Positions 3,792 to 20,074 of a DNA stretch of 21,020 nt are shown here, piece after piece; positions within the stretch are counted from its first letter, which is position 1; the number at the start of each line of letters is the position of its first letter. The position numbers were made by a program, and so were the translations under genes. The stretch lies in the NCBI RefSeq assembly GCF_003334385.1, contig NZ_QOWN01000060.1, one strand, 5' to 3'. The notes beneath the pieces are model-generated. The model did not search any database and was not told the origin of the DNA. It was given only the letters and a program-made list of their open reading frames with translations. The stretch comes from Escherichia coli (GTDB taxonomy: Bacteria > Pseudomonadota > Gammaproteobacteria > Enterobacterales > Enterobacteriaceae).

Positions 3792-4886
3792 ATGAGCAGA
3801 CCGGACTGGGGGGCGTTGCAGCAGGAGTATATTGCTGAATACACCCGCTCCGGTATATCTCCGGTGGCATGGTGTGAAGCAAGGGGACTGAATTACGCAA
3901 CAGCCCGTCGTTACATCAAAAAAACTCCGAAAAATGCGCAGACAGAAATGTGCAAAACTGCGCAAAAAAGTGCGCAGAAAAAATCTGCGCAGACTGCACA
4001 AAAGCGGAACGAAAAATCTCAGGAAAAAAAGCCAGTATTCGATGCGGGCCTGAATGAGGGCGACGCGGAGGAATTTTCGTTCTGTCCCGATGAATTCGGC
4101 ATTTCTGACCAGCAGGCTAAGTTTGCGATGCTTGTTGCTCAGGGTAAAAAGCCGACAGAGGCGTACCGACTAGCCGGTTATGAGGGGCAAGGTGCGACAG
4201 CTAACAGCAACGCCAGTCGTATGCTTAGAAATGCCAGGGTTTTTCGCGCTATCAGCTACTTCCGCAATCAGTACCAGAAACGCTATACCGCAGACCTGGA
4301 TTTACTAGTGAGTCAGTTGATGGCTATTGTCCTGGCCGACCCCAATCAGCTTGCACAATTTCGCCGTGTTAACTGCCGTTATTGCTGGGGCGAGAATCAT
4401 CTCTACCAGTGGCGCGATATAGCAGAATTCGACAAGGCAGCGGCGCAGGCTTCCAGAGATGGCAAACCCGAACCGGAATATGGAGGCCTCGGCTTTGTTG
4501 ATAACGCCATACCCAATCCGGACTGCCCGAAGTGCTGCGGTGAGGGAACGGGACAGCTTTATATGGCTGATACCACTCTGCTTGATGGGGATGCGCGGCA
4601 ATTATATGCAGGGGCAAAATTCGGAAAATTCGGCGTTGAGATCCTGCTGGAGGATAAGGCTGCCGCCCGGCGTGAATTGTTGCGTTTGTTTTCTGCTGGC
4701 GGGGCTTTATGTGCAGATAAGCGGCTACAGGAACTGGAAATTGAACGGCGCAGAATGGAAAACCAGAAGCTGCGCAAAGAGATCGAAACGGTGGAAGATA
4801 ATGAACATCCCCAGCCTGTGGCGATCAATATTAATGTGGTTGATGCCAGAGTAAGGAGTGATGAAGATGATCTCTCCGACGCTTAA
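3792..4886 (+). CDS. Terminase small subunit (Terminase_2-like DNA-binding domain) with N-terminal HTH extension, Lys/Gln-rich repeat linker, CxxC...CxxC zinc ribbon and C-terminal coiled coil
   Basis: ATG 3792 with AGGA 7 nt upstream. Residues ~110-160 (QQAKFAMLVAQGKKPTEAYRLAGYEGQGATANSNASRMLRNARVFRAI) match the pattern of small-terminase N-terminal DNA-binding domains. Additional HTH-like ISPVAWCEARGLNYATARRYIKK near the N-terminus; CRYCWGENH...CPKCCGEG zinc ribbon; gene lies immediately upstream of and overlaps the large terminase. Confidence 0.75.
   Translation: MSRPDWGALQQEYIAEYTRSGISPVAWCEARGLNYATARRYIKKTPKNAQTEMCKTAQKSAQKKSAQTAQKRNEKSQEKKPVFDAGLNEGDAEEFSFCPDEFGISDQQAKFAMLVAQGKKPTEAYRLAGYEGQGATANSNASRMLRNARVFRAISYFRNQYQKRYTADLDLLVSQLMAIVLADPNQLAQFRRVNCRYCWGENHLYQWRDIAEFDKAAAQASRDGKPEPEYGGLGFVDNAIPNPDCPKCCGEGTGQLYMADTTLLDGDARQLYAGAKFGKFGVEILLEDKAAARRELLRLFSAGGALCADKRLQELEIERRRMENQKLRKEIETVEDNEHPQPVAININVVDARVRSDEDDLSDA
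3935..4000 (+). repeat. Array of TGCGCA palindromic hexamers in an A-rich context inside the small terminase gene (candidate pac / TerS recognition site)
   Basis: TGCGCA at 3935, 3959, 3971 and 3986, plus TGCACA at 3995 and TGCAAA at 3951, each preceded by AAA(A)N. The same stretch encodes the peptide repeat KTAQKSAQKKSAQTAQK. Confidence 0.45.
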
Positions 4887-6168
4887 TGTGCCTCAGGCGC
4901 GATTTCTTTCAATGCCCCATAAATTTAAAGCCTATATTGCTGGTTTTGGCTCGGGCAAAACATGGGTTGGGTGTGGCGGCATATGCAAGGGGATTTGGGA
5001 GCATCCAGGTATAAATCAGGGATATTTTGCGCCAACGTATCCCCAAATTCGCGATATTTTTTACCCTACAGTGGAAGAAGTTGCTGCTGACTGGGGATTG
5101 AACGTAAAAATTAATGAGGGAAATAAAGAGGTTCACTTTTATTACGGACGCCAGTATCGGGGAACCACTATCTGCAGATCGATGGAGAAGCCACAAACGA
5201 TCGTCGGTTTCAAAATTGGTAATGCGTTGGTGGATGAACTGGACATTTTGCCGAAGGAAAAAGCCAGAACGGCGTGGCGCAAGATAATTGCACGTATGCG
5301 TTATAAGATTGATGGACTTCGCAACGGTATTGACGTTACAACCACGCCGGAAGGATTCAAATTTGTCTACGAGCAGTTTGTTAAAGCCGTGCGTGAAAAA
5401 ACAGAGCTGGCCTCACTGTATGGTCTGGTGCAGGCATCTACTTTCGATAATGAAAAGAACCTGCCAGCAGATTACATTCCTTCGCTTCTTGAATCATACC
5501 CTCCAGAGCTGATTAAAGCCTATCTTCGAGGACAGTTTACTAACCTGACAAGTGGTACTGTTTACCATCAGTTTGACCGGAAACTGAATAATTGCGAAGA
5601 AGTGGAGCAGCCAGGGGAGCCGATTTATATTGGGATGGATTTTAACGTTGGAAAGATGGCGGGAATCGTCCATGTGCTGCGTTTGGGGCTTCCATGTGCG
5701 GTAACTGAAATCATCAATGCCTACGATACGCCGGATATGATCCGCATCATTAAAGAACGCTTCTGGCTGTATGATGGGAATGATTACCGGAAAGTGAGGG
5801 AAATTTATATTTATCCAGATGCTTCCGGGGATTCCAGAAAATCAAGTAACGCAAGTACGACGGATATAGCCCAGCTTAAGCAGGCTGGTTTTAACGTTGT
5901 GGTGAACAGCTCGAACCCGCCAGTAAAAGATCGCGTTAACTCAATGAATGCAATGTTCTGCAATGCCAATGGTGAGCGTCGCTATAAAGTTAATGTGAAG
6001 CGTTGCCCGTTATATGCCGAATCTCTGGAGCAACAGGTCTGGGATGAGAAGGGGGAGCCTGATAAAAAATCTGGCAATGATCACCCGAATGATGCCGGAG
6101 GTTATTTCATCGTTAAGCAATTCCCTATTGTCAAACCGACCGGAAGAGTCACATCACTTCGGATTTAA
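4867..6168 (+). CDS. Terminase large subunit (ATPase/nuclease)
   Basis: Walker A motif AGFGSGKTW near the N-terminus; 430+ aa; sits between the small terminase and portal. AAGGAG at 4853-4858 is 8 nt upstream of ATG 4867; in-frame ATG 4861 and GTG 4858 are alternative starts. Overlaps the TerS 3' end. Confidence 0.88.
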   Translation: MISPTLNVPQARFLSMPHKFKAYIAGFGSGKTWVGCGGICKGIWEHPGINQGYFAPTYPQIRDIFYPTVEEVAADWGLNVKINEGNKEVHFYYGRQYRGTTICRSMEKPQTIVGFKIGNALVDELDILPKEKARTAWRKIIARMRYKIDGLRNGIDVTTTPEGFKFVYEQFVKAVREKTELASLYGLVQASTFDNEKNLPADYIPSLLESYPPELIKAYLRGQFTNLTSGTVYHQFDRKLNNCEEVEQPGEPIYIGMDFNVGKMAGIVHVLRLGLPCAVTEIINAYDTPDMIRIIKERFWLYDGNDYRKVREIYIYPDASGDSRKSSNASTTDIAQLKQAGFNVVVNSSNPPVKDRVNSMNAMFCNANGERRYKVNVKRCPLYAESLEQQVWDEKGEPDKKSGNDHPNDAGGYFIVKQFPIVKPTGRVTSLRI

Positions 6169-6170
6169 TT

Positions 6171-18786: not shown

Positions 18787-18791
18787 ATCCC

Positions 18792-19535
18792 ATGACACAG
18801 ACAGAATCAGCGATTCTGGCGCACGCCCGGCGATGTGCGCCAGCGGAGTCGTGCGGCTTTGTGGTAAGCACGCCGGAGGGGGAAAGATATTTCCCCTGCG
18901 TGAATATCTCCGGTGAGCCGGAGGCGTATTTCCGTATGTCGCCGGAAGACTGGCTGCAGGCAGAAATGCAGGGTGAGATTGTGGCGCTGGTCCACAGCCA
19001 CCCCGGTGGTCTGCCCTGGCTGAGTGAGGCCGACCGGCGGCTGCAGGTGCAGAGTGATTTGCCGTGGTGGCTGGTCTGCCGGGGGACGATTCATAAGTTC
19101 CGCTGTGTGCCGCATCTCACCGGGCGGCGCTTTGAGCACGGGGTGACGGACTGTTACACGCTGTTCCGGGATGCTTATCATCTGGCGGGGATTGAGATGC
19201 CGAATTTTCATCGCGGGGATGACTGGTGGCGTCACGGTCAGAATCTCTATCTGGATAATCTGGAGGCCACAGGGCTGTATCAGGTGCCGTTGTCAGCGGC
19301 GCAGCCGGGCGATGTGCTGCTGTGCTGTTTTGGTTCATCGGTGCCGAATCATGCCGCCATTTACTGCGGCGACGGCGAGCTGTTGCACCATATTCCTGAA
19401 CAACTGAGCAAACGAGAGAGGTATACAGACAAATGGCAGCGACGCACACACTCCCTCTGGCGTCACCGGGCATGGCACGCATCTGCCTTTACGGGGATTT
19501 ACAACGATTTGGCCGCCGCATCGACCTTCGTGTGA
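18792..19535 (+). CDS. K: Tail tip assembly protein K (lambda K-like) with JAB/MPN metalloprotease and NlpC/P60-type motifs
   Basis: Strong similarity to lambda K. JAMM motif elements are present: E-x-CG (AESCGFVV, residues ~19-22) and HSHPGGLPWLSEAD (HxH-x7-S-x2-D). A Cys...His pair (GVTDCYTLF...HAAIYCGDGELLHH) is consistent with an NlpC/P60 domain. The long start at 18792 is needed to include the JAMM Glu. Confidence 0.88.
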   Translation: MTQTESAILAHARRCAPAESCGFVVSTPEGERYFPCVNISGEPEAYFRMSPEDWLQAEMQGEIVALVHSHPGGLPWLSEADRRLQVQSDLPWWLVCRGTIHKFRCVPHLTGRRFEHGVTDCYTLFRDAYHLAGIEMPNFHRGDDWWRHGQNLYLDNLEATGLYQVPLSAAQPGDVLLCCFGSSVPNHAAIYCGDGELLHHIPEQLSKRERYTDKWQRRTHSLWRHRAWHASAFTGIYNDLAAASTFV

Positions 19536-20074
19536 AAACGGGGGCCGAAGCCATCCGGGCGCTGGCCACGCAGCTTCCGTCGTTTCGCCAGAAACTGAAT
19601 GAGGGCTGGTATCAGGTGCGCATTGCCGGGCGTGATGCAGGCGAAAATGAATTATCAGCCCGTCTTAATGAACCGCTGGCAAATGGTGCTGTGATCCATA
19701 TCGTGCCGCGTCTGGCAGGAGCCAAAAGTGGCGGTGTGTTTCAGGCTGTGCTGGGGGCGGCTGTTATGGCGGTTGCTATATGGATGCCGGGGGTAGGAAT
19801 TATGGCGAGTAATCTGCTGTTTTCTCTCGGTGCCAGTATGACGCTTGGCGGTGTTGCACAGATGCTGGCCCCTAAACCCAAAACCCCCCGCACACAGACA
19901 ACGGATAACGGCAAACAGAACACCTATTTTTCTTCACTGGATAATATGGTTGCCCAGGGCAATGTCCTGCCCGTTCTGTACGGTGAAATGCGCGTGGGGT
20001 CGCGGGTGGTCTCTCAGGAGATCAGCACGGCAGACGAAGGGGATGGTGGTCAGGTTGTGGTGATTGGTCGCTGA
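19433..20074 (+). CDS. I: Tail tip assembly protein I (lambda I-like)
   Basis: 213-aa product MAATHTLPLASPGMARICLYGDLQRFGRRIDLRVKTGAEAIRALATQLP...GDGGQVVVIGR strongly resembles lambda I. Overlaps the 3' end of K by 103 nt in another frame, the same overlap as I recall for lambda. Confidence 0.9.
   Translation: MAATHTLPLASPGMARICLYGDLQRFGRRIDLRVKTGAEAIRALATQLPSFRQKLNEGWYQVRIAGRDAGENELSARLNEPLANGAVIHIVPRLAGAKSGGVFQAVLGAAVMAVAIWMPGVGIMASNLLFSLGASMTLGGVAQMLAPKPKTPRTQTTDNGKQNTYFSSLDNMVAQGNVLPVLYGEMRVGSRVVSQEISTADEGDGGQVVVIGR

Follow-up and report, generated by a model that had tools for sequence, protein, structure and literature searches.

A Rac-type prophage of Escherichia coli with a mosaic late operon: head and tail shaft unlike those of lambda, joined to a lambda-like tail tip

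Introduction

How does a prophage come to carry head and packaging genes without detectable similarity to those of phage lambda next to tail-tip genes which are, in part, nearly identical to those of lambda, and where exactly do the two parts meet? These questions are raised by a stretch of 21,020 nucleotides from Escherichia coli (assembly GCF_003334385.1, contig NZ_QOWN01000060.1), which is called the window here in its full length. It comes from an intact Rac-type prophage, whose late (virion) operon it represents. An earlier note on positions 3792–20074, made from the sequence by eye, had read the region as a non-lambda head module joined to a lambda-like tail-tip module, with recombination junctions somewhere between the major tail gene and M, and had proposed a step in the per-gene identity to lambda as the check. 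That general reading was borne out, and the step was found by BLASTP. The location was only partly as expected: the sharp junction lies further downstream, at 18066–18087, between M and L, and a junction of another kind lies inside the tape-measure gene. Very probably, the Rac late operon is a mosaic of three tiers, with an ancient join between M and L, the right side of which has since been overwritten by homologous recombination.

Results

The step in similarity to lambda

All proteins of the window were compared by BLASTP with the left-arm proteins of lambda, from nu1 through the side tail fibre gene. From the small terminase subunit (TerS) through the tail assembly chaperone, nothing better than E 0.04 was obtained. 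Similarity begins with the tape measure protein, the counterpart of H (1077 residues, 14524..17757), of which residues 270–1077 are 28% identical to residues 57–850 of lambda H (E 1e-76), followed by the tail-tip protein M (17750..18088), which is 42% identical to lambda M (E 1e-31) and whose cluster carries PF05939. The values are far higher in the next genes: 94% for the tail-tip protein L (18088..18786), 97.5% for the tail-tip protein K (247 residues, 18792..19535) over the 199 annotated residues of lambda K, 78% for the tail assembly protein I (19472..20074), and 99% for the N-terminal 295 residues of the central tail fibre J (20134..21020, where the gene leaves the window) in comparison with residues 1–295 of lambda J. 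The six genes are on the plus strand in the order H-M-L-K-I-J, with homologues in lambda at E values from 1e-31 to 0, i.e., in the arrangement of a lambda-type tail tip. H and M had been called lambda-like, which is true in the sense of homology, though they are far from near-identical. The near-identity which had been claimed for L, K, I and J holds for L, K and the N-terminus of J, but not for I.

At the nucleotide level, the window and lambda share one alignment (BLASTN), which comprises positions 18066–21020 of the window and 13407–16391 of lambda, with 91.7% identity; to the left of 18066, or of lambda 13407, the two sequences are unalignable. Identity to lambda changes from about 0.45 to about 0.9 inside a single interval of 60 nucleotides, in the last seven codons of M. 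The junction, as located by BLASTN and by alignments, occupies 18066..18087 on the plus strand and ends at the overlap of the M stop with the L start. The G+C content of third codon positions (GC3) is 0.39 in H, 0.34 in M and 0.64 in L, which is a jump of 0.30 at M/L. The step in similarity at this place is far beyond chance. At the nucleotide level, H and M thus stand on the non-lambda side, and their homology to the lambda genes of the same names is only distant.

An observation on K may be added. The lambda reference has one nucleotide fewer after 14266 than the window and four other lambdoid sequences. With that nucleotide restored, the reading frame of K in lambda (record L003) comprises 247 residues and begins at 14133, as compared with the annotated K of 199 residues, which begins at 14276. 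Homologues of K carry Prok-JAB and NlpC/P60 domains, and phage mEp332 has another gap of one nucleotide nearby.

Exchange to the right of the join

In the comparison with E. coli C9, whose Rac prophage occupies the same chromosomal locus, identity to the window is 99.64% over 13662–18065 and 94.89% over 18066–21020; the differences are 14-fold more on the right, and the contrast is significant (Fisher, p 5e-43). Along L-K-I-J the best-matching reference changes repeatedly, from 2B8/lambda to mEp460, to lambda, to mEp332 and again to 2B8/lambda. Tracts of 100% identity to one or another of the references are present, including runs of 300–400 nucleotides in the comparison with lambda, and runs tests on informative sites gave p<0.0002 for all five reference pairs that were tried. 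A divergent patch in I, at about 19600–19860, is the allele of mEp332 and of the C9 Rac prophage and is absent from lambda and 2B8; because of this alternative allele, I is only 78% identical to its lambda counterpart. Phage mEp460 possesses a third class of M, joined to the shared L at the same point, and the three M classes all end in F-[DE]-[EQ]-V-V. Lambdoid sequences near-identical to L-K-I-J are found in E. coli genomes at a median of 3 places per genome. The one-sided divergence from the C9 prophage and the patchwork in L-K-I-J are consistent with exchange that is halted at the limit of homology; they fit a continuing homologous exchange to the right of M/L, stopping where homology ends.

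Age of the join

Among 50,697 phage records, M of the window had 10 matches of at least 99% identity, and all other matches were at or below 51%; the M of the window is a lineage-specific allele. Intermediates were obtained from a large protein database, namely a Citrobacter sedlakii prophage (L011), with 75% identity in M, and a metagenomic contig of 9.2 kb (L012), with 83%. The Citrobacter prophage has the same layout (tube-chaperone-tape measure-M-L-K-I-J-Lom), and its homologues carry the domains Phage_tail_L, Prok-JAB and NLPC_P60 (in K), Lambda_tail_I and GpJ. In both the Citrobacter prophage and the metagenomic contig the match to lambda begins exactly at lambda 13407, 22 nucleotides before L, with identities of 81.7% and 78.5%, respectively. 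The window and the metagenomic contig are 79.6% identical in an alignment that continues without a break from the tape measure to J (14874–21020), and the window and the Citrobacter prophage are 74.8% identical over the end of the tape-measure gene and M, and 76.5% over L. In M, the window groups with Citrobacter, and lambda is unalignable; in L-J, the window groups with lambda (90.7–98.1%, except for I with its alternative allele), and Citrobacter is about equidistant from both. The join between M and L is therefore ancient, predating the split of the E. coli, Citrobacter and metagenomic lineages, which are about 20% diverged.

In E. coli, all of the 708 genomes with at least 80% of a query spanning the junction run from H-M into a lambda-type L. 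Among 60 records taken at even intervals along the ranking of E. coli genomes, none had a Rac-type H-M followed by a different L, and none matched the H-M half of the query alone. Most of the approximately 3,600 other matching E. coli genomes match only from 18066 onward.

Uniform identity to a single reference phage across head and tail genes had been named in the earlier note as the result that would speak against a mosaic. Technically, such uniformity exists within the same lineage, since Salmonella phage SPF_0923 is 99% identical and the metagenomic relative shows the unbroken block of about 80% from the tape measure to J. This means that the join is old and inherited; the mosaicism relative to lambda is not refuted by it.

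Other explanations of the join were weighed against these data. One recent recombination between a foreign head and shaft and the tail tip of a lambda prophage, in the present strain or in its immediate ancestors, would agree with the near-identity of K and J to lambda, and the stretches of 300–400 nucleotides with 100% identity suggest that at least some exchange was very recent. However, the same join is present in the 708 E. coli genomes, the breakpoint is identical in the Citrobacter prophage and the metagenomic contig, where L-J are only about 80% (78–82%) identical to lambda, and the right side is patchworked from several donors and not from one. A recent event of this kind is thus very unlikely, and 18066 was rejected as a recent junction in the Rac lineage of E. 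coli.

Slightly less probable still is an origin of the step without recombination, in which H and M would evolve much faster than the constrained L-K-I-J, all of them having descended vertically from a common lambda-like tail. It would be in accordance with the true homology of H and M to their lambda counterparts at the E values given above, with the same gene order in the window and in lambda, and with the high conservation of K and J in every comparison. Yet within the Rac-type clade, M and L are equally divergent (74.8% and 76.5% in the comparison with Citrobacter, uniformly 79.6% with the metagenomic contig); there is no step at M/L, which means that both genes diverge at similar rates there. 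Together with the incongruent groupings, M with Citrobacter and L-J with lambda, this excludes simple rate heterogeneity. In addition, the transition takes place within about 20 nucleotides and coincides with the jump in GC3, and the two Rac prophages have their 14-fold excess of differences on the right side. That the join is a chimera of the assembly, or that two defective prophage remnants lie side by side in place of one functional operon, is of negligible probability: several lambdoid prophages with near-identical L-K-I-J in one genome can mislead assemblers, and some Rac prophages are decayed by insertion sequences (IS), such as that of E. coli C9, but the same collinear arrangement recurs in 10 phage records and hundreds of complete genomes, and the genes of the window are intact and packed on one strand, with overlaps of stop and start codons at H/M and at M/L.

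The tape-measure gene

The tape measure protein is itself a mosaic, according to BLASTP and to the match with TIGR01541. Its residues 1–737 are 42% identical to the tape measure of Klebsiella phage 5 LV-2017, and the match is limited to these residues; the domain TIGR01541 (tape_meas_lam_C) was found on residues 705–1040, with E 1e-64 and above the cut-off. Because the Klebsiella match stops at about residue 737 and the lambda-type domain begins there, a second and older junction, relative to the Klebsiella lineage, is located at about 16.7 kb (approximately residue 740, position 16735).

The tape measure of the Citrobacter sedlakii prophage (L011, 7105–10008) matches that of the window over residues 200–748 (59%) and the last 67 residues (81%) only, and the stretch equivalent to residues 749–1010 of the window matches neither the window nor lambda, which suggests further mosaic segments in this gene. 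In the same prophage, a moron block with KilA-N, Arc, P22_AR_N and ANT genes (L011, 3225–7047) is inserted so that it separates the chaperone from the tape measure; in the window, this position is occupied by a terminator-like hairpin (14478–14501, pattern scan), the third one in the late operon. Phage HK639, too, has a moron block at a boundary of tail genes, with genes for a lipoprotein and a YafO toxin that separate M from the tape measure (L006, 14681–16589).

Head and packaging genes

The order of the head genes and the lack of any BLASTP match at E<0.01 between TerS, the large terminase subunit (TerL), portal, Mu-F-like protein, scaffold or capsid and any lambda protein confirm that head and packaging are not organised as in lambda. 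The region does not have the make-up of a lambda module, with homologues of Nu1, A, B, C, D and E, the order Nu1-A-W-B-C-Nu3-D-E and cos, and neither a prohead-protease-like gene nor a D-like decoration gene is present in the list of open reading frames of the window. All genes described in the following are on the plus strand. TerL (4867..6168) matches Pfam Terminase_6N (E 5e-33) and Terminase_6C (E 6e-10) and is not of the lambda gpA type. The portal (6171..7577) is of the DUF4055 type (phrog_145, E 4e-165), and the head morphogenesis protein (7561..8673) resembles Mu F and SPP1 gp7 (Pfam Phage_Mu_F, E 2e-8; phrog_241, E 4e-182). The scaffolding protein (8778..9542) belongs to DUF6651 (phrog_784) and matches phrog_206, "head scaffolding", with E 2e-22; the major capsid protein (9641..10780) is of the P22 coat family (Pfam P22_CoatProtein, E 6e-7; phrog_283, E 2e-136). 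In NCBIfam, no head protein was named above threshold, and SPP1_gp7 and PBSX gave weak matches under the cut-off. A TerL with Terminase_6, a TerS with Terminase_2, a Mu F/SPP1 gp7-like protein and a scaffold with a P22-family coat form together the family signature of headful packaging of the P22/SPP1 kind, and a probable packaging by the headful (pac) mechanism is deduced from these protein families.

TerS (3792..4886) was recognised with phrog_51 (E 2e-75) and with Pfam Terminase_2 (E 3e-7, residues 122–321). Within the Terminase_2 match there is an insertion of about 90 residues, which holds two pairs of cysteines, CRYC and CPKCC, about 46 residues apart; no domain model gave a match to it, and a zinc ribbon is plausible at the level of the motif only. 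TerS is 39% identical to that of Klebsiella phage 5 LV-2017, versus 88% for TerL. An internal part of the gene (3944–4676) is 89% identical at the nucleotide level to phage Rac-SA53 (L014, 13001–13733), which contains Rac early genes and part of this TerS and has an otherwise different late region. TerS looks like a hotspot of mosaicism. The same part of TerS recurs with 93% identity in a record that bears the name Actinobacillus phage vB_Apl-pPE4, Actinobacillus being an odd host for E. coli-like DNA. The low identity of TerS to its Klebsiella counterpart, the unrelated terminase genes of phage HK639 and the partial match with Rac-SA53 mark additional joints within the head side.

Scaffold and capsid genes had been described as bracketed by terminators, and hairpins with U-tracts were indeed located by a pattern scan on both sides. 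The first lies in the gap between the morphogenesis and scaffold genes (8693..8712, plus strand; predicted fold -13.8 kcal/mol, z -3.4), and phage HK639 carries an annotated terminator at the equivalent position. The second, 3' of the capsid gene (10791..10804, plus strand; predicted fold -11.1 kcal/mol, z -1.4), is weak. Terminator-like sites number 20 in total, as against 18 after shuffling of the sequence, and are thus not in excess; the top-scoring ones are intergenic.

Connector, tail tube and chaperone

Four connector genes follow at 11003..12551, for the adaptor Ad1, the head closure protein Hc1, the tail completion protein (Neck1) and the tail terminator (phrog_493, 161, 169 and 179, respectively). 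The tail tube protein (12578..13540) belongs to Pfam Phage_tube_2 (E 2e-31); in agreement with the earlier opinion that the major tail protein does not resemble lambda V, no similarity to V was detected by BLASTP. The tail assembly chaperone YdaY (13589..14358) was recognised with phrog_313, "tail assembly chaperone". A canonical slippery heptamer, A_AAA_AAG, is situated at 14038–14044, three codons ahead of the point where YdaY, the G-like chaperone, has its stop. In the -1 frame, translation could continue from 14044 as far as 14358 (105 codons); from sequence and translations, a -1 frameshift in the style of lambda G/GT is predicted. Connectors, tube and chaperone had no BLASTP match to lambda proteins, V, U and G/T included. 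The tail shaft is therefore not related to Z-U-V-G-T of lambda by detectable homology, and its functional layout is analogous, including the frameshifted chaperone. The chaperone has the frameshift layout of lambda G/GT without similarity to the sequences of G and T, and RefSeq shows separate small open reading frames only.

Identity and distribution of the prophage

The whole window is 99.8% identical over its full length to the chromosome of E. coli SCU-104 (NZ_CP053284; megablast). At least 80% of the window was found in 685 of 5,426 complete E. coli genomes, and among the phage records of GenBank, Salmonella phage SPF_0923 and a series of Escherichia phage vB_EcoS records are 98.3–99.2% identical. 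The homologous region in SCU-104 is a prophage with sieB, racR, ydaS, ydaT, ydaU, ydaV, a lysis cassette, trkG and ydaY; past the prophage end, uspF, ompN and nifJ are situated. The right flank of uspF, ompN and nifJ/ydbK agrees with the neighbourhood of Rac in K-12. The Rac immunity and early region (racR, ydaS, ydaT, sieB) is located upstream in the SCU-104 locus, i.e., in the homologous locus and outside the window. The near-identity to Rac DNA, including the trkG moron and ydaY, is the mark of a Rac-type element, and the near-identity to SCU-104 together with the neighbouring Rac genes identifies the window as the late operon of an intact Rac-type prophage. The genes are tightly spaced from position 3792 onward, and all of them lie on the plus strand.

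The potassium-transporter gene trkG (290..1747, plus strand) is annotated as such in the SCU-104 region and is a marker of Rac-type prophages. It has a G+C content of 0.38 and a GC3 of 0.32 and sits between the lysis cassette and the packaging genes, as a compositionally foreign moron inside the late operon. Upstream of TerS, at 1885–3788, there are three genes, for a protein with a ParB-like nuclease domain (phrog_620), for a protein with a match to a glucosyltransferase family (phrog_842), and an open reading frame of 69 residues, which matches the middle of the small-terminase family phrog_309. The homologues in SCU-104 of the window genes 2669–3601 and 11003–11398 carry annotated internal stops; both genes are intact in the window. 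The SCU-104 Rac prophage also has an annotated anti-phage pair, iteA/iteS, in its early region (L001, 5470–8863). The Rac prophage of E. coli C9 (L007, 7615–14366) is decaying, since its portal gene is broken by IS1 and the genes from connector to tube are replaced by IS5; the genes from tape measure through J are still intact.

Discussion

Comparison with known phages

Rac and rac-like prophages, i.e., SPF_0923, vB_EcoS-666R9 and intact copies in E. coli, are 98.3–99.8% identical to the window at the nucleotide level over 89–100% of its length and have the same neighbours (trkG, ydaY, racR, ydaS/T/U/V, and ompN/nifJ beyond the prophage end). There is essentially no difference, and individual Rac copies vary mainly to the right of M/L. 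The Rac prophage of K-12 has lost the head and most tail genes. With lambda, the window shares the order H-M-L-K-I-J and a lambda-type C-terminal domain of the tape measure; it differs in the low identities of H and M, the length of K as annotated, and a tube, terminator, chaperones and whole head without detectable similarity.

The nearest relatives of the head and shaft modules are temperate phages of Klebsiella, with 67–73% identity at the nucleotide level (distant BLASTN). In Klebsiella phages 5 LV-2017 (KY271399) and ST405-OXA48phi1.3, head, connector, tube, chaperone and the N-terminal two-thirds of the tape measure are collinear with the window. The protein identities to 5 LV-2017 are 88% for TerL, 81% for the portal, 74% for the Mu-F-like protein, 79% for the scaffold, 83% for the coat, 37–71% for the connectors, 71% for the tube and 76% for the chaperone. 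In contrast, the tail tip of the Klebsiella phages is composed of other families (phrog_384/396/329/469), and none of its proteins resembles M, L, K, I or J of the window by BLASTP. Phage HK639 is related to the window in another way. Its portal (69%), Mu-F-like, scaffold and capsid proteins are 50–75% identical to those of the window, and its tip is of the H-M-L-K-I-J type, but the terminase subunits are unrelated, and adaptor, head-closure, tail-terminator and tube proteins have no BLASTP match; among these connector and tube proteins the tail-completion protein alone matches (38%). Since M-L-K-I-J of HK639 are only 31–37% identical to those of the window, this phage is an example of a uniformly diverged tail tip.

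The modular evolution of lambdoid phages (PMC3945230, PMC9836094) is known for junctions that fall sharply at the borders of genes, for functional cassettes that are exchanged, for head and tail in separate modules, and for recombination with resident prophages. Compared with these features, the Rac late operon shows nothing different in kind; it adds a boundary which is conserved across genera and one side of which is still exchanged.

Origin of the three tiers

The reading which we consider very probable may be put as follows. The first tier would comprise head, connector, tube, G/GT-type chaperone and the first two-thirds of the tape measure, with the Klebsiella temperate phages as nearest sequenced relatives. 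The second, consisting of the C-terminal domain of the tape measure and of M, would represent genes of the lambda supergroup in a deeply diverged, lineage-specific allele class. The third, from the last seven codons of M through L, K, I and J, would belong to a pool of alleles common to lambda, mEp332, mEp460, 2B8 and thousands of E. coli prophages. The old join would have been located at a gene boundary bearing a short conserved sequence, and L-K-I-J would then have been swapped repeatedly by homologous exchange with lambdoid phages, co-resident or infecting, in E. coli. Such exchanges would be bounded on the left by the end of homology; as they could not pass leftward beyond it, the M/L boundary would be kept sharp and fixed. 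Experiments have demonstrated that lambda can recombine with Rac and further defective prophages across diverged homologous sequence, catalysed by Red-beta or RecT (PMC3945230), and tail genes are co-transferred among lambdoid phages (PMC9836094). The identities, the breakpoints, the one-sided divergence of the Rac prophages and the patchwork are observed; for the mechanism of recombination and the direction of transfer we argue from them.

Several points weigh against parts of this reading. The match of 22 nucleotides at the end of M may be a conserved C-terminal peptide and not the literal point of crossover. The junction in the tape-measure gene is relative and not polarised, and the Klebsiella lineage, not Rac, may have swapped its tail tip. 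Likewise, lambda-type phages could have gained L-J from the Rac-type lineage instead. Headful packaging is inferred from family assignments, and a sequence search with TerL and capsid against all PDB chains at E<=0.01 found nothing. A functional chimeric tip, viability of the virion and infectious particles are presumed; an active Rac-like phage, KingRac, has been described (PMC6731689).

More tentatively, and with a probability which we would put on the lower side, the overlap of the M stop and the L start might act in lambda-like tails as a conserved linker at which recombination can occur repeatedly, with L-K-I-J as a cassette that is freely exchangeable inside one host species and H-M locked to their own shaft. 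At least three unrelated-looking H-M classes (lambda, mEp460/cdtI and Rac) share the end peptide and join the same L. If this were true, the tail tip of siphoviruses would have its real functional interface where the C-terminus of M faces L, and any H-M class could be combined with any set of L-K-I-J.

Significance

Both the element and its mosaicism are already known, and the window is an ordinary case of lambdoid mosaicism. As a discovery it has little value, since the prophage is common, sequenced and annotated, and mosaicism of head, shaft and tip is textbook biology of the lambdoid phages; mildly new are only the precise conservation of the M/L breakpoint across genera and the one-sided exchange. 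The locus is, on the other hand, a clean worked example, in which a boundary is resolved to 22 nucleotides and conserved across genera, and which shows how the limits of homology can freeze mosaic junctions. It suggests that the tail-tip genes for host range, J and its partners, move between otherwise unrelated prophages of E. coli. Such movement of tail-tip genes is relevant to the prediction of host range from prophages and to the engineering of chimeric tails.

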